A stretch of DNA of 64,000 nt from Phyllobates terribilis (lineage: Eukaryota): contig NW_027362762.1 in NCBI RefSeq assembly GCF_046119375.1, positions 855,662,001-855,726,000 on the forward strand, read 5' to 3'. A model generated the notes under the pieces. That model saw nothing but the letters and a program-made list of their open reading frames with translations. It was not told the DNA's origin and searched no databases. Every line of letters begins with the position of its first letter. Within the stretch, counting starts at the first letter, position 1. This document shows positions 13,481 to 48,319 of the stretch, in pieces. The translations under genes were made by a program, and so were the position numbers.

Positions 13481-14937
13481 AAATTTTGTTGGAAAAATGA
13501 GAAATCGCTGGTCAACTTTTAACCCTTATAGCTCCATAACAAAAAAATTTTGGTTCCAAAATTGTGCTGATGTAAAGTAAACATGTGGGAAATGTTATTT
13601 ATTAACTATTTTGTGTGACATATCTCTCTGATTTAAGGGCATAAAAATTCATATTTTGAAAATTGCTAAATTTTCAAAATTTCGCCAAATTTCCATTTTT
13701 TCACAAATATACGCAAATAATATCGAAGAAATTTTACCACTATCATGAAGTACAATATCTCACAAAAAAACAGTCTCAGAATCAGGGGGATCTGTTGAAG
13801 CGTTCCAGAGTAATTACCTCATAAAGTGACAGTGGTCAAAATTGTAAAAATTGGCCTGGTCATTAACATGCAAACCACCTTGGGTTGTAAAGAGGTTAAA
13901 TAGAAGGGGCATTAAAAATATGATGTGTAATGGCCACTGTCTTCTTTCCTGATCTCACTGCAGAGCTGTGAGTGGTTATAACTGACACATCTGCAGGTTC
14001 CTGTCAATGCTTCAGCTTCTATCTCAGATCACAGATATCAAGGTAGCATTTTATTCAGCTTCCTATGACCTACATGCCTACATAGACGATTTAGAAAGGT
14101 TCATCCTACTGACAGATTCCCTTTAAACGTAGTCTCCGCACACATAGCCTGATTGACATCTTTTCAGTGTCCCTCCCCCCGTTGATATCTCACACTGCTC
14201 AGTACAAGCTGCAGTTGTCAGTCAGGCTGTGGGGGGTAGGAGGGACGGAGATTGAATAGGCTTGGACTCTAGCTATTTAATTCTCTAGATGGACATCGGA
14301 ATAACAGGATTATATAGTCGTTCTGACATCGGTTGTCAAAGTAAAATCTAAAAGATCTATTTAATAATTTAAATTATAAAATCTGATGGTCAATCCTCTA
14401 AAATCTCAAAATTGCACACAAATCAAGCAGGTGATTGTATAAATACTATATATATATCATTTTATTTATATCAAAAGAATGCAGCAGCACTCCATATGGC
14501 CAAGATACGTCTTAACAATGAAAATAATGAAAATATTAGATCTAAACTGTTTTGCTTAGCAACAAGTACTTACAAACAATGAAGGTTTTTAGCGCATAAA
14601 TTGGCCAATTCATGTGTGCCCATGAACCACGGCAAGGTAACCGCCCCCTGATGGGTAACTACTCTGCCTAACATGCCACTTTTGGGCTACAAGCCTACAA
14701 CTAACTGAAGGCATCAAAACTATGAATTACCCAGGGCTGCTGAAAGAGCCGGGTAAAGCACCTGGAAATGGTGCCATGATGAATGCGCCATTTTTAGGGG
14801 TGGCTGCGAGCTGCGATTTTCAGCGGGGGGGCAAGAACGCTTGAGCCTTACCATGCTGCTAATCCCAGCCCCCAGCTGCCTTGTTTTATCTGGCTGGCGA
14901 TCAACATATGGCGGGAGCTGGGCAATGGGCATGATTA

Positions 14938-17190
14938 TCAAATAATATATACCTGACAGGAGCCCATAGATTCTGCTGGTTCCAATAATATATACCTGAC
15001 AGGAGCCCATAGATTCTACTGCCTCGAATAATATATACCTGACAGGAGCCCATAGATTCTGCTGCCTCCAATAATATATACCTGGTAGGAGCCCATACAT
15101 TCTTCTGGCTCCAATAATATATACCTGACAAGAGCCCATACATTCTGCTGCCTCCAATAATATATATCTGACAGGAACCCATAGATTCTTCTGCCTCCAA
15201 TAATATATACCTGACAGGAACCCATAGATTCTTCTGCCTCCAATAATATATACCTGACAGGAGCCCATGCATTCTCCTGCCTCCAATAATATATACCTGA
15301 CAGGAGCCCATACATTCTGCTGCCTCCAATAATATATACCTGACAGGAGCCCATAGGTTCTGCTGCCTCCAATAATATATACCTGACAGGAGCCCATACA
15401 TTCTGCTGCCTACAATAATATATACCTGGTAAGAGCTCATACATTCTCCTGCCTTCAATAATATATACCTGACAGGAGCCCATACATTCTCCTGCCTCCA
15501 ATAATATATACCTGACAGGAGCCCATACATTCTGCTGGTTCCAATAATATATACCTGACAGGAGCTCATACATTCTCCTGCCTCCAATAATATATACCTG
15601 ACAGGAGCCCATACATTCTGCTGGCTCTAATAATATATACCTGACAGGAGCCCATACATTCTCCGGCCTCCAATAATATATACCTGACAGGAGCTCATAC
15701 ATTCTGCTGCCTCCAATAATATATACCTGACAGGAGCCCATACATTCTCCTGCCTCCAATAATATATACCTGACAGGAGCCCATAGATTCTGCTGCCTCC
15801 AATAATATATACCTGACAGGAGCCCATACATTCTCCTGCCTCCAATAATATATACCTGACAGGAGCCCATACATTCTGCTGCCTCCAATAATATATACTC
15901 CACAGGAGCCCATAGATTCTGCTGCCTCCAATAATATATACCTGACAGGAGCCCATAGATTCTGCTGCCTCCAATAATATATACCTGACAGGAGCCCATA
16001 CATTCTGCTGCCTACAATAATATATACCTGGTAAGAGCTCATACATTCTCCTGCCTCCAATAATATATACCTGGTAAGAGCTCATACATTCTCCTGCCTC
16101 CAATAATATATACCTGACAGGAGCTCATACATTCTGCTGGTTCCAATAATATATACCTGACAGGAGCTCATACATTCTCCTGCCTCCAATAATATATACC
16201 CGACAGGAGCTCATACATTCTCCTGTCTCCAATAATATATACCAGACAGGAGCCCATACATTCTGCTGGCTCTAGTAATATATACCTGACAGGAGCCCAT
16301 ACATTCTCCGGCCTCCAATAATATATACCTGACAGGAGCCCATACATTCTGCTGGCTCTAATAATATATACCTGACAGGAGCCCATACATTCTCCGGCCT
16401 CTAATAATATATACCAGACAGGAGCCCATACATTCTGCTGGCTCTAATAATATATACCTGACAGGAGCCCATACATTCTCCGGCCTCTAATAATATATAC
16501 CAGACAGGAGCCCATACATTCTGCTGGCTCTAATAATATATACCTGACAGGAGCCCATACATTCTCCGGCCTCCAATAATATATACCTGACAGGAGCCCA
16601 TACATTCTGCTGCCTCCAATAATATATACCTGACAGGAGCCCATAGATTCTGCTGCCTCCAATAGTATATACCTGACAGGAGCCCATACATTCTGCTGGC
16701 TCTAATAATATATACCTGACAGGAGCCCATACATTCTCCGGCCTCTAATAATATATACCTGACAGGAGCCCATACATTCTCCGGCCTCCAATAATATATA
16801 CCTGACAGGAGCCCATACATTCTCCTGCCTCCAATAATATATACCTGACAGGAGCCCATACATTCTCCTGCCTCCAATAATATATACCTGACAGGAGCCC
16901 ATACATTCTGCTGGCTCTAATAATATATACCTGACAGGAGCCCATACATTCTCCGGCCTCCAATAATATATACCTGACAGGAGCTCATACATTCTGCTGC
17001 GTCCAATAATATATACCTGACAGGAGCCCATACATTCTCCTGCCTCCAATAATATATACCTGACAGAAGCCCATACATTCTCCTGCCTCCAATAATATAT
17101 ACCTGACAGGACCCGTAGATTCTGCTGCCTCCAATAATATATACCTGTCAGGAGCCCATAGATTCTGCTGCCTCCAATAATATATACTTG
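14938..17190 (+). repeat. Minisatellite, 43-bp unit, about 52 copies
   Basis: Head-to-tail unit AATAATATATACCTGACAGGAGCCCATACATTCTGCTGCCTCC with no spacers. The 43-aa-periodic minus-strand ORFs arise from three units (129 bp) cycling through the frames. Confidence 0.97.
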
Positions 17191-24054: not shown

Positions 24055-24507
24055 TTACTTGGCCTACTCGGATGCAGCACTTTGCCTTCACTGCTGCTCT
24101 TGTCTCTGTTGTTTGTCCTTAGCATTGATGTCACATTGACAGAGCTGCAGCCAATCACTGAGCTTAGCAGTTCTGGTGATGTAGACGACATAACCAGCTG
24201 AATTCAACGATTGGCTGCAGCACTGTCAATGTGACATCTGCATTGCCAACAGAGACAAGATCAGCAACAGAGGAGAGACAGTGATGGACCAAGGCAGTCT
24301 GATTGCTTTTATACTGAATTGTACCTGAGGACAATAGTTTCTGAAAACCAGAAAACCCCTTTAAAGGGGCTCTGTCACCAGGTTTTTCTATCTCTTCTGA
24401 TAGCAGCATGATGTAGGGAAAGAGACCCTGAATCCAACGATATATCACTTAGTTTACTGCATGCAGCAGTTCTGATACATCTATAGCAGAGAAAACTCTG
24501 ATTCTAA

Positions 24508-25116
24508 TGTAAGGTGCCCCAGCGAGGTAGTCGTGGGCGAGCTGTAGCCCCCTCTCGCTCTGGCACCCTACAGACAATTTGTGTCCTCCCTCTGATGTGT
24601 GGCTGTGTATGTGGTGCTCTCCACTTACTTCAAACCATCCGATCGCGGCTGTCTCCAGGCATTTCTCTTCTGGGACCAGGGCAGCAATAAATTCAGAGGA
24701 CACGAGGTTCTTAACCAGAACTTGAACTTTACTTGGGGAAGAGGAATATGTACAATATTTACAGGCAGATATAATGGATAAGGCCCGACAGGTTATTATC
24801 TCTCTCACAGGCGCTGGCAACATCTTCAGCCCTGGTTCCCTCTTTAAGTGAAGCATCTCTGTGACTCTAATCTCTAGCCCAAGAGACTCTTCTGCAATAC
24901 CAACAGTGATCTGGATCCGATCTCTCCCCCACGTCTTAGCCTGGAGTCCTATTTATCTTCCTCTGCTTCCTGCAGACTAGAAGTGCCCCGGGTCCTCAAT
25001 ATTTCCTTTGAGTTTCTCCGGCCAGCTAACAGGACTCTTGCTCTTGTGTAGGGAGACTTTCACACTGGTGATCCCACTGTCTGAGGGTATGGAGCTCCCG
25101 TCTACCCTAGCAGCCA
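24508..25116 (-). repeat. 3' LTR lacking its first 415 bp
   Basis: Identity with the 5' LTR stops abruptly after CTACCCTAGCAGCCA (25116 vs 26910). Confidence 0.85.
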
Positions 25117-25777
25117 GGAATCCGTACCCCTCACAGATGTGGAACTCAAGGACTCGTCCCCGAGTCTGGGAAGCCTCCACCGACTCTCTCCGCGCCGCGT
25201 TGGACCCTTCCAGCCAGCCTCTCAGGAAGGTGTCAGTCCATCGCCGCTGCTCCCAGGGCGTCATTGGGGGATTTCGGGTAGTCCACCTCAGACTTCCGAG
25301 CTCAGCGTAGCGCTTCGCCGAGGGGTTGTTCAGGGCCTCTAGCGCCACCTGCCAGAAGTTCTCTTGCGGGGCCCTCTTTCTGGGAGGCCTCGCCTCCGCA
25401 CCACCCCTTTCAGGCCTAGGGGCCCCTGTCGCCGCGGAAGCTGTCGCGGCAGGCGGAACCGGCCACTGGGGTATAGGCTGCTCACCTCCATCAAGCCCCG
25501 CTGCAGTTGTTGCTCCGGCCCCACCGGGATGTTTCCCACCCTCTGGCCGAGGGGGACATGTCTTCCGGCATCCGGCTCCAGCACCACATACGGAACTCGT
25601 GGACGAGCAGGCCCAGCTCCGGATCGGGCCTAGTGGACCACTGGACAGCCACTGGGGGCAAAGACTCACGGGCAGCATCCGCGAGCGACTTTCGATTGCA
25701 GCCCCTGGGGTACTCAGCTCTAGGATTTCTTCCTCGGCGCTCATTCCGGACAGGTCATCCGATCCTCCGGTTGCCAT
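24977..25777 (-). CDS. LTR-element ORF1 (Pro/Gly/Ala-rich, ending in a cold-shock-domain-like motif), truncated by deletion and fused to LTR sequence
   Basis: Likely start AAGATGG (MATGGSDD...) within the 557-aa track ORF 24977-26650; GRVLEFHICEGYGFL at 25115-25159; residues after 25116 are read from the 3' LTR. Confidence 0.55.
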   Translation of the reverse strand: MATGGSDDLSGMSAEEEILELSTPGAAIESRSRMLPVSLCPQWLSSGPLGPIRSWACSSTSSVCGAGAGCRKTCPPRPEGGKHPGGAGATTAAGLDGGEQPIPQWPVPPAATASAATGAPRPERGGAEARPPRKRAPQENFWQVALEALNNPSAKRYAELGSLRWTTRNPPMTPWEQRRWTDTFLRGWLEGSNAARRESVEASQTRGRVLEFHICEGYGFLAARVDGSSIPSDSGITSVKVSLHKSKSPVSWPEKLKGNIEDPGHF

Positions 25778-26281
25778 CTTCGCAGAGCGTCCACTGCAGC
25801 ACCTCCTTCCTCTCGTGCGCTGGACAGAAAATGGCGCTGGTCGCTTACCAGTGACGCGTGTCCTGTGCATCCAACTCCTCCTCTTCCTGGGCCGGCTTTC
25901 TGACGCGACCGCCGCGTCACTCGTCACTCTCGGCAGCTCCGCCTTCAGCCGCGCCCTTTCTCTGTGCGTGCTGATATTCACTGGGCCGGTCTTCACCTTA
26001 CACCGCGCCCTCTTCTTCACTGGACGTCCCATCCTGGGACGCATCTTCACTGCTGGGCCCATCCTTCTTTGGCCCGGAACTCGTAGGGGCTGGACATCCT
26101 TTCGCGCGCTCCGGCGCCGTCCACTCCCACGATAGGCGGTACTTCTCCCAGACTTTACCGCCACTGTCACCATCTTGGAATCCATGCTTCGGGCCGCCAT
26201 CTTGGGCCGCATGCCTTCCAACACTTTCTCCTCAGTGTTCTGCGTCGGCTCTTCCCCGCTTTCTTCATGCGAGGAGCTCGC

Positions 26282-26299
26282 ATCCTGCCGACTACGCCA
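26282..26299 (-). promoter_or_regulatory. Primer-binding site complementary to the tRNA-Ser 3' end
   Basis: Minus strand TGGCGTAGTCGGCAGGAT, 2 nt after the LTR; complementary to the vertebrate tRNA-Ser 3' end ...ATCCTGCCGACTACG-CCA. Confidence 0.9.
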
Positions 26300-26301
26300 A
26301 A

Positions 26302-27325
26302 TGTAAGGTGCCCCAGCGAGGTAGTCGTGGGCGAGCTGTAGCCCCCTCTCTCTCTGGCACCCTACAGACAATTCGTGTCCTCCCTCTGATGTGTGGCTGT
26401 GTAGGTGGTGCTCTCCACTTACTTCAAACCATCCGATCGCGGCTGTCTCCAGGAATTTCTCTTCTGGGACCAGGGCAGCAATAAATTCAGAGGACACGAG
26501 GTTCTTAACCAGAACTTGAACTTTACTTGGGGAAGAGGAATATGTACAATATTTGCAGGCAGATATAATGGATAAGGCCCGACAGGTTATTATCTCTCTC
26601 ACAGGCGCTGGCAACATCTTCAGCCCTGGTTCCCTCTTTAAGTGAAGCATCTCTGTGACTCTAATCTCTAGCCCAAGAGACTCTTCTGCAATACCAACAG
26701 TGATCTGAATCCGATCTCTCCCCCACGACTTAGCCTGGAGTCCTATTTATCTTCCTCTGCTTCCTGCAGACTAGAAGTGCCCCGGGTCCTCAATATTTCC
26801 TTTGAGTTTCTCCGACCAGCTAACAGGACTCTTGCTCTTGCATAGGGATACTTTCACACTGGTGATCCCACTGTCTGAGGGTATGGAGCTCCCGTCTACC
26901 CTAGCAGCCACTATATAGTCAGGCTGCCTGCACAGTTCGCTGTCCTATCTCTTACTGAAGAATCACTTCCTGATCCTGGAAACTAAACAGAGATTTTCCT
27001 AATGTGCCCAGTGAGCTGTCATCACACAGCATTAACCCATCACTGTCTGTAACACAGCCAGCAGACTTAACCTGACATCTGCACCCAGGACAGTGGCATC
27101 TTGTGACTGTTTACAGGTACTGCAGCCCACAAGGAATTATGTCAGGAACAAGCTCTATATCACTCAAGGCTTGATCAGGGCACTAAGTTCCCCCTCCACT
27201 CTACTGACTGGACCACTAACCCCTTAGCTTGGTCTACCAACCGTTCAAAGAGGTCTAACTACAGGGAACACTTTCTTTAACTACTTCAGTGCCAAAGGAA
27301 GGCTACGTCCTTCCCCACTATTACA
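26302..27325 (-). repeat. 5' LTR (1024 bp) of the 24508-27325 element
   Basis: TG..CA ends; immediately upstream of the PBS on the minus strand; TATATA at about 26912-26917. Confidence 0.85.
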
Positions 27326-28488
27326 CTAACAGTGCTTAGAAAGCTGCCACTGCCCACACCACAGTGGCTGGGCTGTGGTTGGACCAGGAGGCACATGGGC
27401 AGCTAGTCCGGCAGTGATAAAGACACTTCTTCTCCTGCTGATAAAACACCTATTGTATTGAAACAATAGCACACAGCCAAATAAGTAAATAAGTGACACA
27501 TCAATGACATCAGTGTCTCAGCCTACCTTATGCTGACCTCAGATTACATAGCAAAACCTGCTGACAGATTCCCTTTTAATGTGTAATGCTGTGAAAGAGT
27601 TACATTTTCCAGATTACTTTTTAGATTACTGTAAAGCGTCTGGTGCAAAGTCCTTACTTCCCAGAATACAAATCAACAGGACAAACACTGTGCAGACATT
27701 GTGCTGGCACGGGATCCTGTTAAATTTCAAGACTGAAGCTTCCTAATGGTGAATGTAGCGAAGAGTATATGGTGAGTTTTTGTTGTTGCAGCATTTCTGC
27801 ACTCATAAGTTAAATTGGGTTACTTGCGTCTTTTACATGCATTTTATTGCTTTTTTGACTGTTGTCTTTGCTACTTTATTTGTATGTTGTGTTTTAGATA
27901 AAGCTGCTTTGTTTTTGATACTTCCTGGTATTTGACTTTGACCAAACTTTATTGATACAGTCATGTCCTCACATGCATTTTTAGTGTGCTTTAGTGTTGA
28001 GCCACCCCCGTAGTGTTCGAGTTCGGTTCGGTTCGTCGAACACCCGTGTGTTCGCCGAACTGTTCGTCGAACTGTTCGTCGAACACCTTCGAACACCGTT
28101 AAAACCAATGGCAGGCAAACAAAAACACATAGAAACACATAGAAAACACCAAAAGGTGTCCAAAAGCTGACAAACTGCTCAGAAGACACAACTAACACAT
28201 GGAAAAGTGACAAGTACATATAGTCATGCGAAAAGAAAAGAGGTGGAGGAGTAAAAGGAGGGGGAGACACAGATATAGGCATGTCATGCCCTTCTAAAAT
28301 CCAAAAAGTGAGAAGCCGAGACGGCCAGTCCGCTCCTGCCCGTGCCACCTCCGTGTCGCCGGGTTTGTGCCAGAGCCGCGGTGAACCCTGACGGCCAGCC
28401 CCCCTCTCCCAATACTGGTGCCTGTCCGCTGGTGGGTCGAGAGAGCCCCCCTGTGGTGGAGGCAGCTCTAAGCTTTTTAATTTAAATT

Positions 28489-32463: not shown

Positions 32464-35400
32464 TTACTCTCCCCAGGATGACACAGGGGTAGAAAAGTCG
32501 TTTCTGATCCATGATTTGTTCATCTTTATGAACGTGAGTCTGTCTACATTATCAGTGGAGAGCCGCGTGCGCTTATCTGTCAGCACACCACCAGCAGCGC
32601 TGAACACACGTTCAGACAAAACGCTGGCTGCGGGGCATGACAAGATCTCCAAGGCGTAAGTGGCTAGCTCCGGCCATTTATCCAGATTGGAAGCCCAAAA
32701 AGAGCAAGGGTCCAGTGACACAGTCGTGGCTTCAATGTTTACTTGGAGATACTCCTGTACCATCGTCTCTAGGCGTTGACTATGTGTCAGACTTCTTGTC
32801 TCCTGTGGCCTTGCAAAGGATGGGCTAAAAAAGTGGTGAAATGATTCCGCAAAATTGATGTTACCAGCAGATACTGTGGTTCTGTTACGGTTTGAGTGCT
32901 GAACACTTGACGGTCCCACGGTTGGCAAGTTGGAACTGTGAGATTCACTACGTGCACCACTGGTATTTTGTGGAAAAGCACATGTAAGATTCTGCAACAG
33001 TCTCTGCTGATACTCCTGCATGCGTGCATCCCTTTCTATGGCAGGAATAATTTCTGCAAATTTACTTTTGTACCGGGGATCTAACAGTGTGGCAACCCAG
33101 TAGTCAGGATTATTTCTAATTCTCACAATTCGAGGGTCATGTTGCAGGTAGTGCAGCAAGAAGGCACTCATGTGTGTTGCGCATCCAGGAGCACCAAGTC
33201 CCTGTTGTGTTGGTGGCGAGGTAACAATCATGCTTCCTTCCTCTGTCCTCTCCCCCCAACCTCGCACAACAGAAATGTGATCAAGGTCTCCCTCATCTGA
33301 TGAGTCTTCCATCAGTTCGTCCTCCACTTCTTCCTGGGCTCCTGCACCTTCCTCACTAGTTTGGCTGCTACCATGCGCCCTGGTAAAATCATCTCCCCCA
33401 CCCTCACATGCCTGCCGCCTTGGTGCTGCCGACCGTCTGGACCTTGCAGATGTTAGCCCTTCCGCATACAACTCCTCCTCCTCTACTTCCTCCACCTCCT
33501 CTTGTGCCACCACCTGACTCCGAATTCTGTTTAACATGTGCTCCAGCATGTAAATCACCGGAATAGTCATGCTGATAATGGCATCGTCAGCACTAAACAT
33601 CTTCGTCGCCATTTCAAAACTGTGCAGAAGGGTGCATAGGTCCCTGATCTGAGACCACTCCTCCAGCGTGATTTGCCCCACCTCTGAATCTCGTTGGCCC
33701 AGGCTATACGTCAGAACGTATTGCACCAGGGCTTGTCGGTGCTGCCACAGTCGCTGCAACATGTGCAGAGTTGAATTCCACCGGGTAGGCACATCGCATT
33801 TTAGCCGGTGAAGTGGCAGGCCCAACGACTTCTGTAGAGATGTAAGTCGCTGAGCTGCGGGATGCGAACGGCGGAAGTGAGCACACAGCGACCGTGCCCT
33901 CTGCAGAAGGCCATCTAGTCTGGGATAGTGGGCTAAAAATTGCTGGACAACCAGGTTCAACACGTGAGCCATACAAGGCACGTGTGTGACATTGCCCCGG
34001 CGAAGGGCCGCACCCAGGTTTGCAGCATTGTCGCACACGGCCTTCCCTGGTTTCAGGTCCAGTGGAGACAACCATTCATGAAATTGGTTCTCCAGAGCTG
34101 ACCACAACTCCTCAGCTGTGTGACTCACATTTCCCAGACATTTCAATGTAAAAACCGCCTGATGACGTTGAGCCCTACTGCCAGCATAGTAAGGAGGTGT
34201 GCAGGATCCCTTCTGCGCAGTTAGAAAGCTTGTGGCATGACCAGACAGGCTTTGGGTGCAGGTGGAAGACCGAGAGGAGGTTGAGGAGGCAGAAGCAGTG
34301 GAGGAACTTTGACATAAAGAGGATTGACGCACAACTCGTGGGGACGGCAAGACTTGGACAGCAGCCCCTTGTCCTGCTGTCACCATAGTTACCCAGTGCC
34401 CAGTCAGCGACATGTAACGCCCCTGTCCATGCCTACTCGTCCAAGTGTCTGTGGTGAAATGCACCCTGTCACACACAGAGTTTCTCAAAGAAGCGGTGAT
34501 GTTGTGTGCGACATGCTGGTGGAGCGCAGGCACACCTTTCTTTGAGAAGTAGTGCCGACTGGGCATCTGGTACTGGGGCACTGCGACGGACATAAGGTCT
34601 CGAAAATCCTCTGTGTCCACCAGGCGGAAAGGCAGCATTTCTGTAGCCAAGAGCTTGCAGATGGTGAAATTCAACCTCTTAGCTTTCTCATGGCTAGGAG
34701 GAAATGGTCTTTTACTTGTCCACATCTGAGGGACCGAGGGCTGGCTATTGTGCTTAGACGGGGTTGATAAGGGTGTCCCCGGCAAACTGCCGGTCTGTGA
34801 GGAAGATGCAGGCGGACATGTTAGGTTGCCTTGATCCAAAGGTGGTGCTATCGATGTCGGACAGCGCTCAAGACCAGCTGGTGTTACCACCTCCAAAGAA
34901 AATGATGACCTGCCAATCACGCTGGCTGTTGCGGGTAAAGAGGTGGCAGGTCTGCGCCCCAAAACAGGTGTGACTGCTGTCCCCCCAGTCACAGAGGATG
35001 AAGAGGCCGCGGATGCACAAGATATGGCAGACGGTGGTTGGCCCGGCCGGCTAGGCCGCATTGTAGCACACTGAGCTTCCCACTGCAACTTATGCTTCAT
35101 GTCCATGTGCCGGTTCATGCATGAAGTACTCAAACTATGTATTTTTTGGCCTCTACTTAGCTTTTGCTGACAAATGTTACAGATAACACGAGTTGGGTCA
35201 TCTTTATCGATCTGAAAAAATGCCCAGGCTATGCAAGGCTTAGCACCCATGCGACCTGAAGAGCCACCACGACTTGTGGTGAGAGGCAGAGTTGTGTTTG
35301 AGGATGCAGTTGTTGACGTGCTTCCAGTACTACGTCTCTGTCCAGGAAGGCGCAACCTGACCTCGTCGTCACTAGCATCTTCCTCCACCTCCTCTGCTGA

Positions 35401-36027
35401 CCTCATCTCTTGGCTGACTGTGGGTTGACAGTAAGTGGGATCTCCGACCTCATCATCATCACCCTGTGCGTTATCACACCCGTCGTCCTCAGAGCCAACC
35501 TGTTCCTGCCCTGACAAAAAACTAAAGTTGTCGCTCCAATCAGGTATTTGAGTCTTATCATCGTCTTCCTCATTGTCTCCACCAACAGGAGTTACAGTTT
35601 GGGAATGAGGGTCTACATTATGGTCAGAACCTTCTGCGTCTGGTCCTGGATCCGACTCATAAAGATTCTGGGCATCAGTGCAGATCATTTCCTCGTCTGG
35701 ATTCACAGAAGCACTGGAGTCGACCTCTGATTCCCAGGCTATAGTATGAGTAAACAGCTCTGCAGACTCAACCATCTGTTCTACCTCATACTCAGATGGG
35801 CAGCTGGAGCTTTGGGAGCTGTGAGGAAGCAAGTGCGATTTGGGTGACACCTTTGAGGACTGGAGTATTTGTGATGTTGAAGTTGATGTGGAGGAGAGCC
35901 CACTTAAAGGAGCACTTGATATCCGTTGAAGCACCTGCTGTTTTTGTGCCTCATCTGGAATTTGTAGCGATTGGCGTGGCCGTAAGAAAGGGATCTTATC
36001 ACATTGTCCGCTAAAAGAAGTAGACAT
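32464..36027 (-). CDS. hAT (Ac/hobo-family, ZBED-like) transposase, 1187 aa
   Basis: BED finger (AWAFF...CNIC...HMDMKH), HFTTDTW, VCDNAAN, CMAHVLNL (CxxH), RWNST, and C-terminal dimerisation region with SERVFS; ORF uninterrupted. Confidence 0.95.
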   Translation of the reverse strand: MSTSFSGQCDKIPFLRPRQSLQIPDEAQKQQVLQRISSAPLSGLSSTSTSTSQILQSSKVSPKSHLLPHSSQSSSCPSEYEVEQMVESAELFTHTIAWESEVDSSASVNPDEEMICTDAQNLYESDPGPDAEGSDHNVDPHSQTVTPVGGDNEEDDDKTQIPDWSDNFSFLSGQEQVGSEDDGCDNAQGDDDEVGDPTYCQPTVSQEMRSAEEVEEDASDDEVRLRLPGQRRSTGSTSTTASSNTTLPLTTSRGGSSGRMGAKPCIAWAFFQIDKDDPTRVICNICQQKLSRGQKIHSLSTSCMNRHMDMKHKLQWEAQCATMRPSRPGQPPSAISCASAASSSSVTGGTAVTPVLGRRPATSLPATASVIGRSSFSLEVVTPAGLERCPTSIAPPLDQGNLTCPPASSSQTGSLPGTPLSTPSKHNSQPSVPQMWTSKRPFPPSHEKAKRLNFTICKLLATEMLPFRLVDTEDFRDLMSVAVPQYQMPSRHYFSKKGVPALHQHVAHNITASLRNSVCDRVHFTTDTWTSRHGQGRYMSLTGHWVTMVTAGQGAAVQVLPSPRVVRQSSLCQSSSTASASSTSSRSSTCTQSLSGHATSFLTAQKGSCTPPYYAGSRAQRHQAVFTLKCLGNVSHTAEELWSALENQFHEWLSPLDLKPGKAVCDNAANLGAALRRGNVTHVPCMAHVLNLVVQQFLAHYPRLDGLLQRARSLCAHFRRSHPAAQRLTSLQKSLGLPLHRLKCDVPTRWNSTLHMLQRLWQHRQALVQYVLTYSLGQRDSEVGQITLEEWSQIRDLCTLLHSFEMATKMFSADDAIISMTIPVIYMLEHMLNRIRSQVVAQEEVEEVEEEELYAEGLTSARSRRSAAPRRQACEGGGDDFTRAHGSSQTSEEGAGAQEEVEDELMEDSSDEGDLDHISVVRGWGERTEEGSMIVTSPPTQQGLGAPGCATHMSAFLLHYLQHDPRIVRIRNNPDYWVATLLDPRYKSKFAEIIPAIERDARMQEYQQRLLQNLTCAFPQNTSGARSESHSSNLPTVGPSSVQHSNRNRTTVSAGNINFAESFHHFFSPSFARPQETRSLTHSQRLETMVQEYLQVNIEATTVSLDPCSFWASNLDKWPELATYALEILSCPAASVLSERVFSAAGGVLTDKRTRLSTDNVDRLTFIKMNKSWIRNDFSTPVSSWGE

Positions 36028-38536
36028 TTTAGTTTGGCTGGAAGATGGTCTTTCTTCTGCACCTACCCCACGGACACAACCTTTTTTCCCCTTCCCAACA
36101 CGCCTATTCCCCTTTCCACCAGCAGCAGGCCTTTTTCCACTCCTTTTGGTGGTTAACTAATTCACAACTCTGGAGTTGTTTGCACAAAAAAACAATGGAT
36201 GGTAACCGAGCAGAGCTGAGTGGCCAAACTGTGGTATTAGGCCAAAACTATTGGCTGGGTTAGATGCAGAAAAAAATTATTTTTAATTTGCAACCTGATG
36301 GAGGTCAGTATAGATGGACTAATAGAATGATGCTATGCCCAAAAGATTTTACTTCACTAGGTGCAGTAAAAAAATTGGTATTCTATACACAGGTGGTATA
36401 TCTTGCAACACAGATAGGCTACTCCACTGACTAACCCACTCTGCAATAGGCCAAAAAGGATTAGCTTTGCTAGATTCAGCCAAATGCTGTGAAAAAAACT
36501 TGCACAGCACTGGCACAGACCTGCCTGGCAAAAACTGATAGGAACTGATGTAACCTAGTCCTGAAAAGGACTCCAATTACAATTAGTCTTTACTCCCACA
36601 ATCTATCTATTTAAGAGCACAGACCTGCTTGATAAAAGTCGTAGGAAATGCTGTAACCTAGTCCTTAAAAGGACTGCAATCACAACTATTCCCTACTCCC
36701 AAGCTATCTGTATATTTGTGCGAAAATTGGCTTGAAATTAACAAGGTATAGCGCACACAGCAACAGCGGTGCCGTCTAACACGCAGCTGCAGCAGTGAGA
36801 AAATGGTGGCGACGGGGAAAATGGCTTGGTCTTATAGGGCAAGGACATGTGACATACACTGCCAATCACACATGCCCTTGCTTGTGTGAAAAAAAGCACT
36901 TCGCTCCGTGTGTGCGCTGCTGATAGGCTGACAGATTGCACCTCCCCACTGCAAATGCGGGAAAGAGAAAAAAAAATGGAGATCTTCATTGTTCCTGCAG
37001 AGATCCATCCCCTGCCCCTCCCCCCGCCCCGCTGTACACTCAAACTGCGTATTAACATTAATTTTCATCATTACTGAGAAAAAATCCAGTTATGATTTTG
37101 GTGCACGAACAGTTATCGAACATAACCTCGAACAGCCGAATTTTTCTCAAATTGTTCGTGTTCGCCGACCGGCTCGAACACCGCCCAAAACAGCTCGAAT
37201 TTGAGATTGGCGAACAGTTCGAGTAGAACAACGCTCATCTCTAGTGTGCTTCCACAGGGAGAATGCATTAGAAACGCATTATAAATGCATGTGCGTTTTT
37301 ATCTGGATTTTCCGATTCTAATGCAAGTCTATGGGGAAATTCCACACATAAAACTCAGCGTACCTTGAAAAGAAGTTGACATGTTGCGGATCTGAAACAT
37401 GTACCGCAGGTCAGTTTAAACAGCATAAAAAATATGCACAGTGGGCATGAGATTACTATAAATTCCATCCACTTTGCAGTACATAGCATCAAAAACTTAC
37501 CAATAACTCATAGTCGGAACTTAACCTCAAGTTATGTTCCCACAATGAGTATTTTATGATATTTGATAATATTCTGCACCTATCGGGTAAATTAGTTACT
37601 TGCATTTTTTTCAGTGATCAAGGAAATTACGGTTATATAGCTCCTTCTGGCCACATTCCGACTAGACGTGTCCAACCTCCCTCAATTCATTTTCATTGAG
37701 TGAGGCCACGCATGTCTAGTCAGCACATGGCCGCATGTATACAAATCGCCGGCACGATCCTGACAGTGTGCAGTGTGGACTGTGAGAATTCAGAAGTCTG
37801 CAGTCACATAAAATGACTGCAGACTCATCACAAACGTGGATAACATCTTTAATGCTCCTAACATAAAAAAAAAAAAAAAAAAAAAGTCAGCATCATAAAA
37901 AACATTTACATCCAAGTACCTTATAGATGACGCTGTCTCTGGAGTCGCTCTCTTTCTTTTTTTCCTCTTGCCCAGACTCCATGATGAGTTTTCTCATACA
38001 CAGCCGTCTCTGCAGAATTCCATCTTCTCCGGTCTTCTGCAGAACATCCCCACACGATGCCCTGAAAGATAGCAGAGTCATTATAATGCTCCTGAATAAA
38101 AATATCTGTCCTACACTAAGCCCCTGAATATACAATTACCCCTCACTATATTCCCTGCATAAAATATCACCCCCACACTGTCCATCTTATGGTACATGCT
38201 CTCCACACTGCCCTCTCCTTTCCATACTGGGCCCCCTCTTCACACTGTCCTCACACTGTGTCCCCCCTATAGGGCTCAGTCTCTATACTGTGCCCCCTCA
38301 TCACACTCCCGCTCCTTAGCATACTGTTCCCTCTTGACTGTGACCTTACACTGTCTCCCCATGCTATCGCCCACCCACTACTCAGTCTATTCTGTGCCCA
38401 CTCACACTTTTCTTTCCCCATACTGTCTCCTCACACTATTCCCCTCAATAGTCTCCTTACACGTTTCCCCCTACCTAATATTTCCTCCTCACACATCCCT
38501 CCAACTCCCCATACTGTATCTGCACACATCCCATCA

Positions 38537-41419: not shown

Positions 41420-42420
41420 TGTGGCACCCCAGGGGTCTGGTTTCCACAGTAACAGCAATGTTATGTCTGAGAGCAGGTGGGAGGTCTCTTGGTCAGGAAT
41501 CCTATGCATGCCACACCTCCTGCCCAGTCCTGGGAGGGGAAGGACTTCCCCTATATAAACCTGGGGCTGAGGCAGGGTTAGTGAGTAGAGAAGAAGTACA
41601 GACAGAGAAAAGAAGCAAATATAGGAACAGAACATCAGGAGCTCTGTGGGAGCAGTGTTACAAGGAGTCAGGGGCTGGCAGCTGCAGAGCTCGCCCTGAC
41701 TGAGAAGATTTCTTACCGGACCCGGAGTCCGAGGCTGTGGGGACTAACTCCTACCCAGCAGCAGAATCTGTCAGGCAGGGGATTCCAGGTCCTCTGGCCA
41801 AGAAACCCGAAGGCACGGTCACACGCATGGGACCAGCACCGCCGTCGTGGAGCGGAAGCTACTAGAAGGCCCCGAGTCACCGGCCATACGGGTGAGCACC
41901 ACACGGCACACTCAGGGACGTGGGCTACTTTTACCCGCCTCTAGCAAGGTAGCCAGAAGAGTACAGTTAGTTTGGGAGGCCTACAACTCCGCCTGGCCAG
42001 GGGAGATCCCATCTGCTCAAGGACTGACCAGGCCCCAATCGCTAGCCAGTACTCCGGGAGGGTCTATCTTTGTCACCAGTAAAGACCCTGAACTACACCG
42101 TACCGTCTCCGAGTGATTCCTGCTACCCCCATCATCCACGTCGGCTGCCCTGAGGCCATACCCCTCCCGTTGGGGGTTATACTATCACGCTGCACAATCC
42201 TACCACCGGCCTCAGCGGTCTGCCCTGCAGCAGCAGCTCCTTAGCTGTACTCAACAGGTGGCGTAGTCGTCCAACATCTACCGCTAATACAGCGCCACTT
42301 AGTCTGACTCCCTGGGCACGGACCGGATCACCGCCACGAGACTACAACCCTCAAGAGATCCGGCTCCGGGTAAGCTCCCGCGTGCGCAACGCAGCGCGAC
42401 ACAGGCCCAGGGGCGCGTCA
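41420..42420 (+). repeat. 5' LTR
   Basis: TGTGGCACC...GGGGCGCGTCA; TATATAA at about 41552; about 7 substitutions versus the 3' LTR, counted by eye. Confidence 0.96.
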
Positions 42421-42426
42421 ACTTTT

Positions 42427-42444
42427 TGTCGTAGTCGGCAGGAT
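42427..42444 (+). promoter_or_regulatory. tRNA-Ser PBS with one mismatch (TGT for TGG)
   Basis: TGTCGTAGTCGGCAGGAT, 6 nt after the LTR. Confidence 0.85.
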
Positions 42445-42862
42445 CTCGTGCCCGCAACCACCGGGTACTGCGTGCCTGAAAAAGACTGTTCAAACTTAGC
42501 TGTGGTGAAGATTCCCGCCATCCGGCGCCATCTTCTACATTCTTCCCGCCATCCGCAAAGTTTTCCCGCCATCCGGCGCCATCTTCGGCCTTCTTCCCGC
42601 CATCCGTGGAGGTTTCCCGCCATTGGACGCCATCTTGAGGGCGCCGCGCGGGAAGAAGAGGGGCGTGGACTCCGAAAGCGCGCGAGAACTGAAGCCCCGC
42701 CTCACGTCCGGACGTTGCGTAAGGTCCTGGAAGGAGCCCAGCAGACGCCGACGTCACAGGAGCGCGACGGAAGGTCCTCAACCCTGACGATCCACTGCGG
42801 AGCCGCGGCCTACGGAAGAGGATCATCGCAAGGTAGGCCACCATCCACTAGGGGGGAGAAGG

Positions 42863-43843
42863 ATGTCTGATACGGAGGAGAGCTTCACCGCTTCAACCCC
42901 CGCCAGCGCCACCGCTGTTGCGGTCATGCCTTTCACCATGCCCTATATCCCGGGGGCAGCCTGGCTACCCCAGTACTCAGGGGAATCGCATACCCTGCAT
43001 GACTTTAGAGAAAAGCTGGATAGCCTCTTCCAGGTGTACCCCCTTACAGAAGAGCAAAAAGTGAGCATCCTGGTGGCCCAATTAACCGGGGCAGCCCAAA
43101 GGGAGGTAAAGTCTTGGCCACGTGGGGGGAGGACTGTCGCAGGGATACTGGCCCGGCTGAGGGACACCTTTGATACCCGCACCTCAGCCGAGATCAAGCT
43201 CAGATTCTACGGGTGCAAACAGCGGGCACATGAGAGTATAAGGGACTATGCATTAAACCTACAAGAAGCCCTGAGAGCCATTAAGCAGACCGACCCTGAC
43301 GGCGTGGGAGACGAGGACAGGCTGTTGACTGAACAATTTATAGAGGGTTTATATTGCAATGCCCACCGAACCCAGTTGCGGGCAATGGCCTTACAGGACC
43401 CTCATCTGGGATTTGCACAGTTCAAGGACAGAGCCATCCGGGTGCTCCGAGAACCGGCACCAGGTGGCGTTGTGACCCACAGACGCCCCACTACTACTTA
43501 CCACCAGGAGGCGGCGCCCTTGTCGGCAGGGCCTGTGGGAGCTGATGCGCAGGCTTTGAGCAATGACCCGGCTCCAGACCTGCACCATCAGGTCCAAGAG
43601 CTAGCTAAAAGCGTTGCTGCGCTAACCCGAACTGTGCAGTCTTTACAGGTTTCTACTCCAGGGAAGATCCAGCTGGCATCCGGACCGGAGGACATCCCGT
43701 GGCGTCGACCAAGGAGGACCCCACCGGCCAGAGGAAGACCCAGCGACCGATACAACGAGGACGGACGACCCATCTGCCGTCGCTGTAATCAACCCGGACA
43801 TATGGCAAGGTACTGTCCTTTAAACTGGCACAACCTAGGGTAG
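42863..43843 (+). CDS. gag: Gag (326 aa)
   Basis: PNMA/Gypsy-like capsid region (LPQYSGE, LTGAAQREV, IRDYALNLQ) and CCHC knuckle CRRCNQPGHMARYC. Confidence 0.93.
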   Translation: MSDTEESFTASTPASATAVAVMPFTMPYIPGAAWLPQYSGESHTLHDFREKLDSLFQVYPLTEEQKVSILVAQLTGAAQREVKSWPRGGRTVAGILARLRDTFDTRTSAEIKLRFYGCKQRAHESIRDYALNLQEALRAIKQTDPDGVGDEDRLLTEQFIEGLYCNAHRTQLRAMALQDPHLGFAQFKDRAIRVLREPAPGGVVTHRRPTTTYHQEAAPLSAGPVGADAQALSNDPAPDLHHQVQELAKSVAALTRTVQSLQVSTPGKIQLASGPEDIPWRRPRRTPPARGRPSDRYNEDGRPICRRCNQPGHMARYCPLNWHNLG

Positions 43844-43877
43844 AGGGCCAACCCCTAGGAAAAAGATCATCAGGCCC
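43819..43877 (+). promoter_or_regulatory. -1 ribosomal frameshift signal (T TTA AAC plus a predicted pseudoknot)
   Basis: The slippery heptamer shifts gag into the open pol frame; 8-nt spacer; stem 43834-43840/43853-43859; loop GGGCC pairs with GGCCC at 43873-43877. Confidence 0.8.
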
Positions 43878-46800
43878 ATCGAACTGGCGCGACAAATATG
43901 TGGGAGGACGTCCAGTCTTGCCTGTGGTACTGGATGGCATTCCTATGAGTGCCCTACTGGACACCGGGTCACAGGTCACCACCATCCCGTACGTGCTCTT
44001 CAAGCAGTACTGGAATGACTCGGATATTACCCGCTACCCTGACGACGACTTGAGTATCATCGCCAGCAATGGTCAGCCCGTGCCACAGATCGGATTTAAA
44101 GAGGTGACCATTAAAATTGGTAGAGTTGAAGTGGCAGCACAGGGACTGATCATTGTAGACATTGACAAACACGAGAGTCACCCAAAGATAACTCTAGGAA
44201 CTAATGTAATTGAAAATTGTCTTGCAGAGGTGATTTTCCTTTTACAGCAGGTTGCCAAGAACGCCAGCTCCGGCGAGCAGCGAGTGCTCCAAAAAGAGAT
44301 CCGGGCACTGATGCGACGGCAACAGGTGGAACTCTCCGGCGGTGAGATTGGTAGCGTGAGAATGTGTGACCCTTTCCCTATTGCCATGCCCCCAAAAAGT
44401 GAAATGATGATTTGGTGCCGGGCAGCTATTGGTCTAAGAGGTAGAGATTACCAGGCAATGGTAGAACCAGTTTACTCAGACAGTAGGCCCACCATCTTGA
44501 CAGCACGGGGGGTGGTTAATGTACGCCATGGGAGGGTGCCCGTTCGCATAATCAATATCGGGAAGAGGGAAGTGTACCTGCCCCGGTATGCCACGCTAGC
44601 CAAATTATATACCATTAACCAAAATGCTATACAATCTGTGGAACCCTTGCCTCCATCTCACCCGGAGGAAGGTAACGGCTCTAAGAAAACAATGGAGGAC
44701 TGGTGTCGGCAACTACATTTGGGTACTGACTCCACTCCCTCACACCAGAAACAGGGAGTCTATCGGGTGGTTCAAGAGTACGAGAGAGTGTTTAGTAAAC
44801 ACCCGTTAGACTTCGGGCGAGTCAAGGGGGTAGAACACCACATCCCCACGGGAGACCATCCTCCCATAAAAGAGAGGTATCGACCCGTACCCCCTGCACA
44901 CTACCAACACGCCAAGGGGATGCTTAGAGACATGAAGGAGGCTGGGGTGATCAGGGATAGCTGTAGCCCCTGGGCAGCTCCACTAGTCTTAGTCAAAAAG
45001 AAAGACAACACCATGAGGATGTGTGTAGATTACCGGAAAATCAACCGTATCACACACAAGGATGCGTACCCCTTACCAAGGATAGAGGAGTCTTTGGCTG
45101 CTTTAAGATCTGCTAACTTCTTCTCTACCTTGGATCTCACTAGTGGGTACTGGCAGGTTCCTGTAGCAGAGGCGGACCGGGAGAAGACCGCATTCACCAC
45201 CCCGATGGGACTTAGCGAGTTTACGTGTATGCCGTTCGGACTCTGCAACGCACCAGGAACCTTCCAACGATTAATGGAGTGCTGTCTGGGCCACAGAAAC
45301 TTCGAGACGGTCCTGTTGTACCTGGACGATGTCATCGTATATTCTAAGACTTATGAGGACCACCTGAAACACCTGGCGGAAGTGTTCGAAGCTCTGGCAA
45401 GCTACGGCCTAAAGGTGAAACCCTCCAAGTGTCACCTCCTGAAACCAAAGGTGCAGTACCTGGGACACGTGGTGAGCGCTGACGGAGTGGCTCCCGACCC
45501 TGATAAGATCACCGCAATTAAGGAATGGCCAAGTCCCTCCAGTGTAAAGGAAGTGCGGCAGTTCCTCGGGTTGGTAGGCTACTACCGCAGGTTCATCCCC
45601 GGTTTCACCAAAAAGGCAGCTCCTATGCAGGACCTCCTGATAGGCCAGTCCCGGAAGGCCAAGAACCAGAAGCCGCCCTTCAGATGGGAGAAGTTGGAAG
45701 AAGAGTCCTTCCGCCAGCTGAAGATGGCCCTCACGGGGGATGAAATCCTGGCGTACCCGGATTACAGCCAGCCCTTTATCCTCTACACCGACGCAAGTAA
45801 CATCGGGCTAGGAGCCGTGCTGTCCCAGATCCAGCAGGGGAAAGAGCGAGTAATCGCTTACGCCAGCCGAAAACTGCGACCCACCGAAAGAAACCCTGAG
45901 AATTCCAGCTCATTTAAGCTAGAGTTCCTGGCAGTGGTGTGGGCAGTCACCGAACGCTTTAAGCACTACCTCGCTTCTTCCCGGTTCGTCGTGTACACGG
46001 ATAACAACCCGTTGACACACCTGGACACGGCAAGACTCGGTGCCCTAGAGCAGAGATGGATGGCCCGCCTGTCCAACTACGAGTTCACCATCAAATACCG
46101 GGCAGGACGCTCCAATACCAACGCGGACGCCCTGTCCAGGATGCCAAACCTACCGGACGTAGGAGAAGATCCAGAGGGACTGGAAGAAGTCGAACTCCCC
46201 GCGTTTCACCGTCATGGGACTATCCAGTATTCCCATCGGGTAAGGAGTAAGCAAGGCGCTACGCTTAACCCCTTACCTCACTACAACTGGGCGGAAACGC
46301 AAGACAGTGACCCTGCCGTCCGGCTGGTGAAGGAGATGCTGACTTGGCCAGAGGCTCGCCTTGACCCAGACGCTCCGGAGGAAGCCAAGCAACTGTGGGC
46401 AGAAAAGAGTAGACTGTTCCTTTACAAGGGGAAGTTGTGCCGCAGGATGGTTAACTCCCGGACGCATGAACTAATCTGGCAAGTAGTGGTGCCACGACGA
46501 GACGCAGCCATGGTGATGGAGGCATACCACGATGGAGCTGGGCATTTCGGATGGAAGAAGCTGGAGTTCCTGCTGCGCGGGCGGTTCCATTGGGTAGGCA
46601 TGAGGGGAACCATCGAGAGGTGGTGCAGAGACTGTGGCCCGTGCAACCTGAGGAGGAAGGACCGTGCCAGCCAGAAGACTCCCCTGCAGTCCATCGTCAC
46701 CCGGCAGCCGTTGGAACTGGTAGCCTTGGATCATGTAAAACTGACCCCAAGCAGAAGTGGCTACGTCTACGCGTTAACCATCGTGGATCATTACTCCCGG

Positions 46801-47955
46801 TTCTTGGTTGTCGTCCCCGTCAAGGACTTAACGGCTCAAACAGTAGCTAGAGCCTTCCAGCAGCACTTCTGCCGTCCACACGGGTACCCGGACCAAGTGC
46901 TGACGGACCAGGGACCTGCCTTTGAAGCGGAGGTCTTCCAGGAATTCTGCAATCTGTATGGCTGCCGGAAGATAAGGACGACACCCTATCATCCGCAAAC
47001 TAATGGACTTTGTGAGAAAATGAACCAGGTGGTAATGGATCTCCTGAAAACGTTGCCTCTGGAAGAACGCAGTCTGTGGCCTGAGAAGCTGCCCGATCTG
47101 GTGGACCTATACAACCACATCCCGGTAGGTTCCACCAACTGTACCCCGGCTTACCTAATGAGGGCGAGACCTGGTAAGTTACCTGTTGACCTGGAAATGG
47201 GAGTCCTGACACCCGAGGACACTTCACCAGAAGCAGACTGGGACACAGAGAGGCAGCAGCAGTACCGGAAAGTACAGGAGAGCGTGGAGCGGAGTCTCTG
47301 TCAGGCTAGGGAAAGACAAGAGAAAACTTACAACCAGTATGCTCCCGCTGTTCCCCTGGTACCCGGAGAGCAGGTCTTGAAGAGGAAAAGACGGCTCCAC
47401 AAGTTGGACGACCAGTGGGAGAAGGACCCGTACACCGTACTGCCCTCAAGCCATGAGAACCCGAAAGTCTGTACCATCAGTAAAGACGGAGGGGAGACCA
47501 TAGCCATTGTATCCCGGGATCACCTGAAAAAGTGTCCTGAACAGCTACGGAACCCTGAAGAGGAACAAGAAGACCATCGACCCATAAAGGAAAGGGAAGA
47601 TATGGTTAGTACTGTGCTCGGAGACTTCCCTCGGTCCTGGACTCAAGTCAATGGTGCAGTTGTGGTACCCGTCCTCACGTTCCTCCAACCAGCATCCCAA
47701 GTGCCTACGGAGCAACAGGTAGAGCTGGAAGAGCAGCCGGTCCAGGAGGCAGAAGACTCCACACAAGCAGAACAGGAGGATCAACCCTCTGCTTATAGTG
47801 AGCCTGCCGTACCCCTAGTGAGCCAAAGAGCCGGTAGACAGCTGCCCAGTTTACCCTTGACAGCTCCTACACCCTGTAGTTCAGGGCTAGACAGTCAGCT
47901 CCGTAGGTCCACTAGGGCCACTAGAGGCCAGTTACCCGCACGTTGGAGGATTTGA
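43819..47955 (+). CDS. pol: Pol (protease, RT, RNase H, integrase), expected to be translated as Gag-Pol
   Basis: LLDTGS, YLDD, YTDAS, H..AGH..C..C, LD..TDQG..E; uninterrupted in Gypsy order (track ORF 43900-47955, 1351 aa); frame open back to the slippery site. Confidence 0.95.
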   Translation, partial: FKLAQPRVEGQPLGKRSSGPSNWRDKYVGGRPVLPVVLDGIPMSALLDTGSQVTTIPYVLFKQYWNDSDITRYPDDDLSIIASNGQPVPQIGFKEVTIKIGRVEVAAQGLIIVDIDKHESHPKITLGTNVIENCLAEVIFLLQQVAKNASSGEQRVLQKEIRALMRRQQVELSGGEIGSVRMCDPFPIAMPPKSEMMIWCRAAIGLRGRDYQAMVEPVYSDSRPTILTARGVVNVRHGRVPVRIINIGKREVYLPRYATLAKLYTINQNAIQSVEPLPPSHPEEGNGSKKTMEDWCRQLHLGTDSTPSHQKQGVYRVVQEYERVFSKHPLDFGRVKGVEHHIPTGDHPPIKERYRPVPPAHYQHAKGMLRDMKEAGVIRDSCSPWAAPLVLVKKKDNTMRMCVDYRKINRITHKDAYPLPRIEESLAALRSANFFSTLDLTSGYWQVPVAEADREKTAFTTPMGLSEFTCMPFGLCNAPGTFQRLMECCLGHRNFETVLLYLDDVIVYSKTYEDHLKHLAEVFEALASYGLKVKPSKCHLLKPKVQYLGHVVSADGVAPDPDKITAIKEWPSPSSVKEVRQFLGLVGYYRRFIPGFTKKAAPMQDLLIGQSRKAKNQKPPFRWEKLEEESFRQLKMALTGDEILAYPDYSQPFILYTDASNIGLGAVLSQIQQGKERVIAYASRKLRPTERNPENSSSFKLEFLAVVWAVTERFKHYLASSRFVVYTDNNPLTHLDTARLGALEQRWMARLSNYEFTIKYRAGRSNTNADALSRMPNLPDVGEDPEGLEEVELPAFHRHGTIQYSHRVRSKQGATLNPLPHYNWAETQDSDPAVRLVKEMLTWPEARLDPDAPEEAKQLWAEKSRLFLYKGKLCRRMVNSRTHELIWQVVVPRRDAAMVMEAYHDGAGHFGWKKLEFLLRGRFHWVGMRGTIERWCRDCGPCNLRRKDRASQKTPLQSIVTRQPLELVALDHVKLTPSRSGYVYALTIVDHYSRFLVVVPVKDLTAQTVARAFQQHFCRPHGYPDQVLTDQGPAFEAEVFQEFCNLYGCRKIRTTPYHPQTNGLCEKMNQVVMDLLKTLPLEERSLWPEKLPDLVDLYNHIPVGSTNCTPAYLMRARPGKLPVDLEMGVLTPEDTSPEADWDTERQQQYRKVQESVERSLCQARERQEKTYNQYAPAVPLVPGEQVLKRKRRLHKLDDQWEKDPYTVLPSSHENPKVCTISKDGGETIAIVSRDHLKKCPEQLRNPEEEQEDHRPIKEREDMVSTVLGDFPRSWTQVNGAVVVPVLTFLQPASQVPTEQQVELEEQPVQEAEDSTQAEQEDQPSAYSEPAVPLVSQRAGRQLPSLPLTAPTPCSSGLDSQLRRSTRATRGQLPARWRI

Positions 47956-48319
47956 AGTGTATAAATTGTTTTATTTGTGGTTACCTGTTTTTCTTGTTGC
48001 TTGTGTATAATTATGTGTTTCTAGTTATTTATAGGAGTCCTTGGTGGATTTACCGGGAATCCTTGTACATGGTTGGAGCGTAACCTAGGAATGGACTAAA
48101 GACTGTTAAGGACTCGGGGCAGGACAGACCCCTACCTGGTTACGTCTCCCTGTTTTGATGAAATGGACACCTTTGTTTTCTTCAAATACTGCACCCGGTT
48201 GCGGACACGCCGTAACCATCTTTATGTGTTTTTCTTATTGTATTATTATTGTTTATACCTTGTTATGTTTTTCTAAAAATATGTTTAGTCCCGGAGTACT
48301 AAATTTCACTAGGGGGGAA

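Follow-up and report, generated by a model that had tools for sequence, protein, structure and literature searches.

A host-type cold-shock domain in a short, Gypsy-associated LTR retrotransposon family of the poison frog Phyllobates terribilis

The window analysed here, a 64,000-nucleotide stretch of the Phyllobates terribilis genome, contains an LTR element whose open reading frame at 25777–25115 (minus strand) starts MATGGSDD and ends in GRVLEFHICEGYGFL. An earlier note read this ending as the RNP1 motif of a cold-shock domain (hereafter CSD), proposing that the domain had been captured by the element or had replaced its Gag/nucleocapsid function. The locus thus raises the question of whether the motif belongs to a real CSD and, if so, what such a domain does in a retrotransposon. 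With no Pfam match for the truncated protein, the window copy alone did not suffice to establish the motif, and proof had to come from undeleted copies.

The minus strand of 24508–27325 was found to be one internally deleted LTR element, with the following features:

24504..24507, no strand: target-site duplication, left copy (CTAA)
24508..25116, minus strand: remnant of the 3′ LTR, 609 bp, lacking the first ~415 bp
25114..25116, minus strand: three-base microhomology at the deletion junction
25115..25159, minus strand: remnant of the CSD, strands 1–2 with RNP1 (GRVLEFHICEGYGFL)
25160..25777, minus strand: Pro/Ala/Gly-rich region and conserved helical segment upstream of the CSD (dN/dS 0.47 and 0.21 in 26 copies; composition)
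25778..26212, minus strand: basic in-frame segment, 33% Lys+Arg, the "leader" of the earlier note
26282..26299, minus strand: primer-binding site, presumably of the tRNA-Ser type, read through in the ORF frame (two matches in the window against 0.02 expected)
26302..27325, minus strand: 5′ LTR, 1024 bp, TG...CA
26912–26917, minus strand: TATA-like box in the 5′ LTR
27326..27329, no strand: target-site duplication, right copy (CTAA)

The 5′ LTR and primer-binding site lie at the positions first described for them, and the last Leu codon does fall at the deletion junction, where the microhomology was found. The two LTRs differ at 11 of the 603 bases compared. The window copy has lost about 1.8 kb, comprising the rest of the CSD, the C-terminal region, the 3′ UTR with its hairpin, the polypurine tract and the beginning of the 3′ LTR. 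It is left without hairpin, polypurine tract and the greater part of the CSD and is likely dead. ARAGORN and Rfam did not confirm the tRNA-Ser identity of the primer site, the 3 loci tested of 26 giving tRNA-like 3′ fragments only. A stretch of about 40 bases that looks like the 3′ half of a tRNA and ends in CCA occurs at 26 exact places (L056–L058), and at least two of these tRNA-like 3′ halves overlap LTR–primer junctions, as if retained tRNA sequence had lengthened the primer site. An antisense open frame of 274 codons (25311–26135, plus strand; 278 codons in five other copies) lies over the GC-rich interior and probably just shadows the sense ORF. Elsewhere, the window holds a 43-bp tandem array at 14800–17000 and a 1,230-codon open frame at 32467–36156 (minus strand).

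The family of the window element is referred to below as family A, and another CSD-bearing LTR family of the same genome as family B. Undeleted copies of family A run past EGYGF into a complete CSD, including the RNP2 strand that had been predicted to lie in the deleted part, and the RNP1 motif is therefore real. Pfam PF00313 matched 3 of 3 undeleted family A copies with E values of 3e-4 to 8e-4; scores were 19.6–23.2 bits in family A and up to 39.4 bits in family B, relative to a curated cut-off of 27. The best PDB sequence match was YB-1, gapless over 78 columns. When a profile of 19 element CSDs was used, YB-1/YBX2 came first (52–53 bits, E 2e-13), followed by bacterial CSPs (at most 39 bits, E 4e-9) and Lin28b (19 bits, E 9e-3). 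The Lin28-like architecture once envisaged for the element was not borne out, Lin28 scoring lowest among the CSD matches (19 bits, compared with 53 for YB-1) and a CCHC knuckle being present in 0 of 18 frames. Structure prediction, suggested in the earlier note as a check, gave a five-stranded OB barrel (pLDDT 70.7), for which Foldseek returned YBX2/YB-1 as best matches (E 2e-6, rmsd 1.9). The best score in the ESM Atlas (0.87) fell to a bacterial CSD cluster and is a lead only. A search with residues 150–330 returned one chimeric gene model only, and a model of the full-length protein (pLDDT 32) was uninformative.

YB-1 is described as contacting nucleic acid through W65, F74, F85 and H87 (PMC7498358). 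Among 24 element-type CSDs, the F74 equivalent is kept in all, the F85 equivalent is F or Y in all and the Y72 equivalent is always aromatic, while the W65 equivalent is Trp in 0/24 and the H87 equivalent His in 0/24. Because W65 and H87 are replaced throughout, the domain may bind RNA weakly or in an altered way. Element CSDs commonly have a basic pair following RNP2 and a strand-5 aromatic, which may compensate for this loss. With YB-1 and YBX2 (PDB 5yts and 7f3i) the element domain shares the CSD fold, a long loop between strands 3 and 4 that aligns gaplessly, and the aromatic RNP1/RNP2 core, as these are described in PMC7498358 and PMC8464072, and both have Pro/Ala-rich and charged disordered flanks around the CSD. 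Unlike YB-1 and YBX2, the element domain is encoded by a mobile element, is ~32% identical to them, has lost the W65/H87 equivalents (24/24) and has non-homologous flanks with the parts in another order. The element CSD is most likely derived from Y-box proteins and is not itself one of them.

Judging from sequence and the structural model, a host Y-box gene is the most likely source from which the CSD was captured. In phylogenetic trees with microbial CSDs for comparison, those of the elements came out as a single clade (96/94); this support was lost once two long host branches were added, and a single capture is therefore unsupported by the tree. Four proteins were left out of both trees, their domain not having been cut, and the host Y-box gene was represented only by a YBX-like pseudogene, decayed and long-branched. 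A search of the genome for host YBX exons found none.

For characterization of family A, the 10.6-Gb genome was searched with a 301-base probe, giving 790 candidates, of which 40 were scored; exact family A LTR–primer junctions numbered 472 genome-wide. The usual form among the 20 top matches was an LTR, ~2.6 kb with one ORF and a second LTR, and the hallmarks of the family are TG...CA LTRs, the primer site, a short purine tract and a target duplication. All 9 copies measured showed 4-bp target duplications and LTR identities of 96.0–99.5%, which argues for real retrotransposition. Junctions found 3.6 kb apart in twos and threes (e.g. G000:C1:582554090-582561375) mark tandem copies, which probably share LTRs. 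The long pol at one of the 20 top matches belonged to a chromodomain Gypsy nested in the copy, where it interrupts the ORF, and was rejected as a parent element; at another, an oppositely oriented gag-pol element lies next downstream.

A second set of 20 loci was then considered: 19 had been selected by junction among the first 100 of the list, and one was a diverged copy. Neither gag nor pol was found in any of these 20. The whole 2.58-kb interior is present in 15 of them and deleted or interrupted in three, and in the other two, LTR, 5′ part and 3′ end are retained around an unrelated acidic ORF without a CSD. In L064 (1910–3043) and L077, the family A LTR and 5′ basic region are joined to this type of ORF, which has no Pfam match; these variants represent cargo swapping within the passenger family. 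Since 2 of 20 copies moved with CSD-less cargo, the CSD is not required for mobility and is at most an advantage for the element. A search by junction patterns for an autonomous element with the family A LTR, in which 4 of 4 and 30 of 94 loci were opened, found none with both; the loci opened were family A variants, other CSD families and unrelated gag-pol families. We class family A, from the sequence of its copies, as a non-autonomous passenger LTR retrotransposon without pol or a detectable capsid.

That the ORF holds no recognisable capsid had been stated correctly, as Pfam gag, PNMA and knuckle models all gave no match. Of the earlier alternatives for the CSD, capture stands, most likely from a host Y-box gene, whereas replacement of Gag/NC in an ordinary Gypsy is not supported, the element lacking both pol and a detectable capsid. 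A Gag diverged beyond recognition, with the CSD in place of the zinc knuckle, in an element that makes or joins particles, would also look much like this: the ORF is in the gag position, its nucleic-acid-binding domain is C-terminal to helical segments, and Gag-only passengers are known from the descriptions in PMC4350172 and PMC12067270. The profile comparisons are also shallow (Neff <2), and the full-length model reached pLDDT 32. We nevertheless consider a hidden Gag quite unlikely, given the absence of the above Pfam matches and hhalign probabilities of 0.2% and 0.8% against PNMA-type Gag, obtained with shallow alignments. In addition, the CSD alone is common to families A and B, and the rest of the ORF is of low complexity, its helical stretches being too short to build a capsid fold.

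The reading frame is longer than first described. It is open from 26746, inside the 5′ LTR, with in-frame ATGs at 26650 and 26617 (both in the LTR) and at 26212, so that the supposed GC-rich leader belongs to the same open frame and the true start is probably upstream of MATGG, where it had been placed. A stretch of 314 codons, consisting of the last 140 LTR codons, the primer site and the basic region and chosen after the open frame was noticed, contained no column with a majority stop in 26 of 40 copies, compared with 16 and 12 such columns in the other frames. The primer site is crossed in the same frame in family B and in one Anomaloglossus protein.

Selection was assessed by pairwise codon counts in the same number of copies (26 of 40), the other 14 having been dropped because they gave no single long match. 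The CSD gave dN 0.078, dS 0.94 and dN/dS 0.08 (0.05–0.13), as against dN/dS values of 2.1–2.5 in shifted frames; for family B, CSD values of 0.08 (3 copies) and 0.16 (6 copies) were obtained. The family A CSD is under strong purifying selection, and the ORF is, as the reading of the earlier note required, conserved between copies. Among the remaining parts (26 copies), the ratio was 0.21 both in the helix preceding the CSD and in the tail, 0.47 in the Pro/Ala region and 0.55 in the basic region. The LTR part gave 0.72 (0.45–1.18), indistinguishable from 1, and the value for the basic part overlaps that of the +2 frame; as dN/dS is uninformative in both, coding there rests on the stop count. 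Low synonymous divergence in the basic segment (25778..26212) suggests that it may carry cis signals as well. Selection implies that the protein matters to the element; it does not follow that it acts in cis.

To place family A among other carriers of the domain, the 10.6-Gb genome was searched with PF00313. This gave 33,380 first-look candidates; all 150 that were scored exceeded the cut-off, many of them in frames of 710–816 codons. Nineteen loci were opened, of which 13 are LTR-flanked (two with identical LTRs), five have no LTR pair (one of these being a decayed YBX-like sequence) and one is obscured by satellite. Neither gag nor pol lies between the LTRs of any of the 13. By our grouping, the genome holds at least five CSD families, at least four besides family A. 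LTR identity reaches 100% in family B, and families A and B have nothing in common within the ORF but the CSD. At L055 (G000:C1:734437889-734449260), intron-less frames that we label CSDE1/Unr-like stand in tandem; these are probably duplicated processed copies.

HMMER against 1.84 billion proteins returned 17 hits, and a CSD match was present in 14 of the 14 scanned, one of them weak. The named hits come from Ranitomeya, Anomaloglossus and Bufo bufo, which places related CSD proteins in other poison frogs and in toads. No CSD–gag or CSD–pol fusion occurs among the 17 + 10 + 3 database hits of HMMER and two profile searches. In the public gene models P0001, P0002, P0004, P0017, P0022 and P0026, pieces of the CSD or ORF are fused to olfactory receptor, astacin, protease and other host genes, and some of these models are named Y-box-binding protein 2-A-like. 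Host selection could also keep the ORF in domesticated copies, with the element merely a vehicle, and the copies joined to host gene models in databases could be taken in that sense; they look like annotation chimeras, however. The signal of selection lies between subfamilies inserted at unrelated sites, and many individual copies carry stops and frameshifts, so domestication appears highly improbable.

The CSD selection data from families A and B would also fit a protein that acts in trans on the host or helper, as a Y-box mimic or decoy that keeps silencing off element RNAs or alters translation in oocytes. The altered RNA face would suit a changed target, pol-less single-ORF elements are described as able to affect development (PMC12067270, PMC4585706) and Gypsy RNA is reported to be abundant in poison-frog ova (PMC6278860). 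A pure trans benefit, however, reaches copies with a dead ORF too and should decay fast; the ORF has nonetheless been kept in several families, the CSDs of which are only 22–30% identical. Action in trans is accordingly judged unlikely.

Candidate helpers were found both within the window and elsewhere. A gag-pol Gypsy at 41420–49320 (plus strand) carries a PNMA-like CCHC Gag, pol and a GTTT duplication, and its primer site is that of family A with 1 mismatch. It has the LTR end, primer site and leader in common with family B (74% over 360 bp) and the primer site only in common with family A. A second, interrupted Gypsy of the same clade at 59500–64000 (minus strand) is 71–84% identical to it. 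No CSD is present in the gag-pol elements of the window. A 50-nt hairpin is common (90–92%) to the family A 3′ UTR and the LTR of another gag-pol family. The gag-pol version of this hairpin has 1,433 exact matches genome-wide, many paired 6 kb apart, and 8 of 8 pairs opened were gag-pol elements with the family A primer site and LTR identities of 93–99.5%; none of the 8 has a CSD. Family A and this candidate overlap in age, and nothing detectable is common to them beyond primer site and hairpin. This abundant hairpin-bearing gag-pol Gypsy is the likeliest candidate for a helper of family A.

The hairpin is retained in both cargo-swapped variants and gone from the window copy. Its family A version folds with a z of −3.4, while two other versions are not outstanding relative to shuffles (one better of three in all). 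The family A loop contains a 6-base palindrome, missing from a third version; the alignment is 96% paired, with one pair changed on both sides, and Rfam matched no family in the element. The conserved hairpin, which has a 9-bp stem, was noted at L078:4098-4160, L132:1052-1114 and L038:6141-6203, in the passenger 3′ UTR, a gag-pol LTR and, with a different loop, a further CSD element. The hairpin may be a dimer or packaging signal, or it could be a functionless captured piece of LTR.

These comparisons also bear on whether the 3.6-kb elements arose by deletion from an autonomous Gypsy, itself unseen, that carried the CSD ORF as an accessory gene. The termini of family B do match a gag-pol Gypsy, and the sample is small relative to 33,380 first-look candidates; with about 80 CSD candidates opened out of thousands, an autonomous carrier of the domain, if rare, is conceivable. 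Against such a parent, the CSD is missing from all 8 helper-type copies and from the gag-pol elements of the window, the 17 + 10 + 3 database hits hold no CSD–gag or CSD–pol fusion, and very young short copies have the ORF open and selected. We regard this origin as very unlikely.

The explanation that we favour, with somewhat better than even confidence, is that the element is a passenger of a tRNA-primed gag-pol Gypsy and that its Y-box-type CSD protein likely binds and chaperones its own RNA. A single RNA would be made from the LTR promoter. Its translation, from an ATG in or just 3′ of the LTR, would yield a largely disordered protein of ~590–730 aa, consisting of a basic arm, Pro/Ala linker, helix, CSD and charged tail. 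The protein would coat its own RNA, protect or store it in germ cells and melt its structure, while the helper Gypsy, for family A most likely the one with the hairpin in its LTR, would package, prime and integrate the RNA. Such chaperoning would give the passenger an edge over helper RNA and so keep the ORF under selection. YB-1 is described as unwinding and packaging dormant mRNA (PMC8464072) and as supporting HIV replication (PMC6040738). The CSD region is covered by contigs of four runs, three of them taken for RNA by guess alone; this is not evidence of transcription. We would only tentatively go further, to an old, active, Gag-less frog passenger lineage founded by a single Y-box capture, with a re-tooled RNA face, an LTR-started frame and a helper-derived hairpin that loads the RNA into helper particles. 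The 6-base palindrome loop would then be a kissing-loop-like dimer signal and, if this were true, the element would be a retroelement parasite equipped with a packaging adaptor of host origin.

As a rule, non-autonomous LTR elements have either no gene or a Gag; mammalian MaLR, for instance, is a pol-less single-ORF LTR element with a Gag-type ORF. In the soybean SARE/SNRE pair of autonomous and non-autonomous LTR elements, the passenger reportedly shares cis signals with the helper family. Unlike in that pair, the primer site and a short hairpin are all that family A has in common with its candidate helper, the hairpin has moved from the helper LTR to the passenger 3′ UTR, and a host-derived gene is carried. 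Pol-less single-ORF LTR elements have been described as plant TR-GAG (PMC4350172), zebrafish Bhikhari (PMC12067270) and Xenopus 1a11/Xretpos (PMC4585706), and as there described they resemble the frog element in being short LTR elements with one ORF and no enzymes that spread. Their ORF is given as Gag or Gag-like, whereas the only fold found in the frog ORF is a Y-box CSD; from 1a11 and Xretpos the frog element is set apart by their published descriptions, not by sequence. A host-type CSD (pfam00313) is reported in 46 bird ERVs, with several captures according to the authors (PMC12287698), and like the frog element these have a host-type CSD inside a vertebrate LTR retroelement. As that paper presents them, the bird elements are retroviruses identified by RT in which the position of the CSD varies; in the frog, unlike the bird ERVs, the CSD ORF is the sole gene of high-copy, pol-less, Gypsy-associated elements and is selected in several families. 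The literature covered, with Repbase, Dfam and most subscription journals outside its scope, held no CSD-bearing non-autonomous LTR elements of amphibians, and the word "cold" is absent from the poison-frog genome paper.

A passenger with a selected, captured host RNA-binding domain represents another route by which such parasites may gain an edge; it occurs here in several families, with candidate sites running to thousands in the 10.6-Gb genome of this frog. The system offers two objects for direct tests, a small domain whose RNA face has been altered naturally and a short RNA hairpin. It also carries a warning for annotation, as element ORFs are labelled "Y-box-binding protein-like" or merged into host gene models. 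CSD passengers may help to explain repeat expansion in large amphibian genomes.
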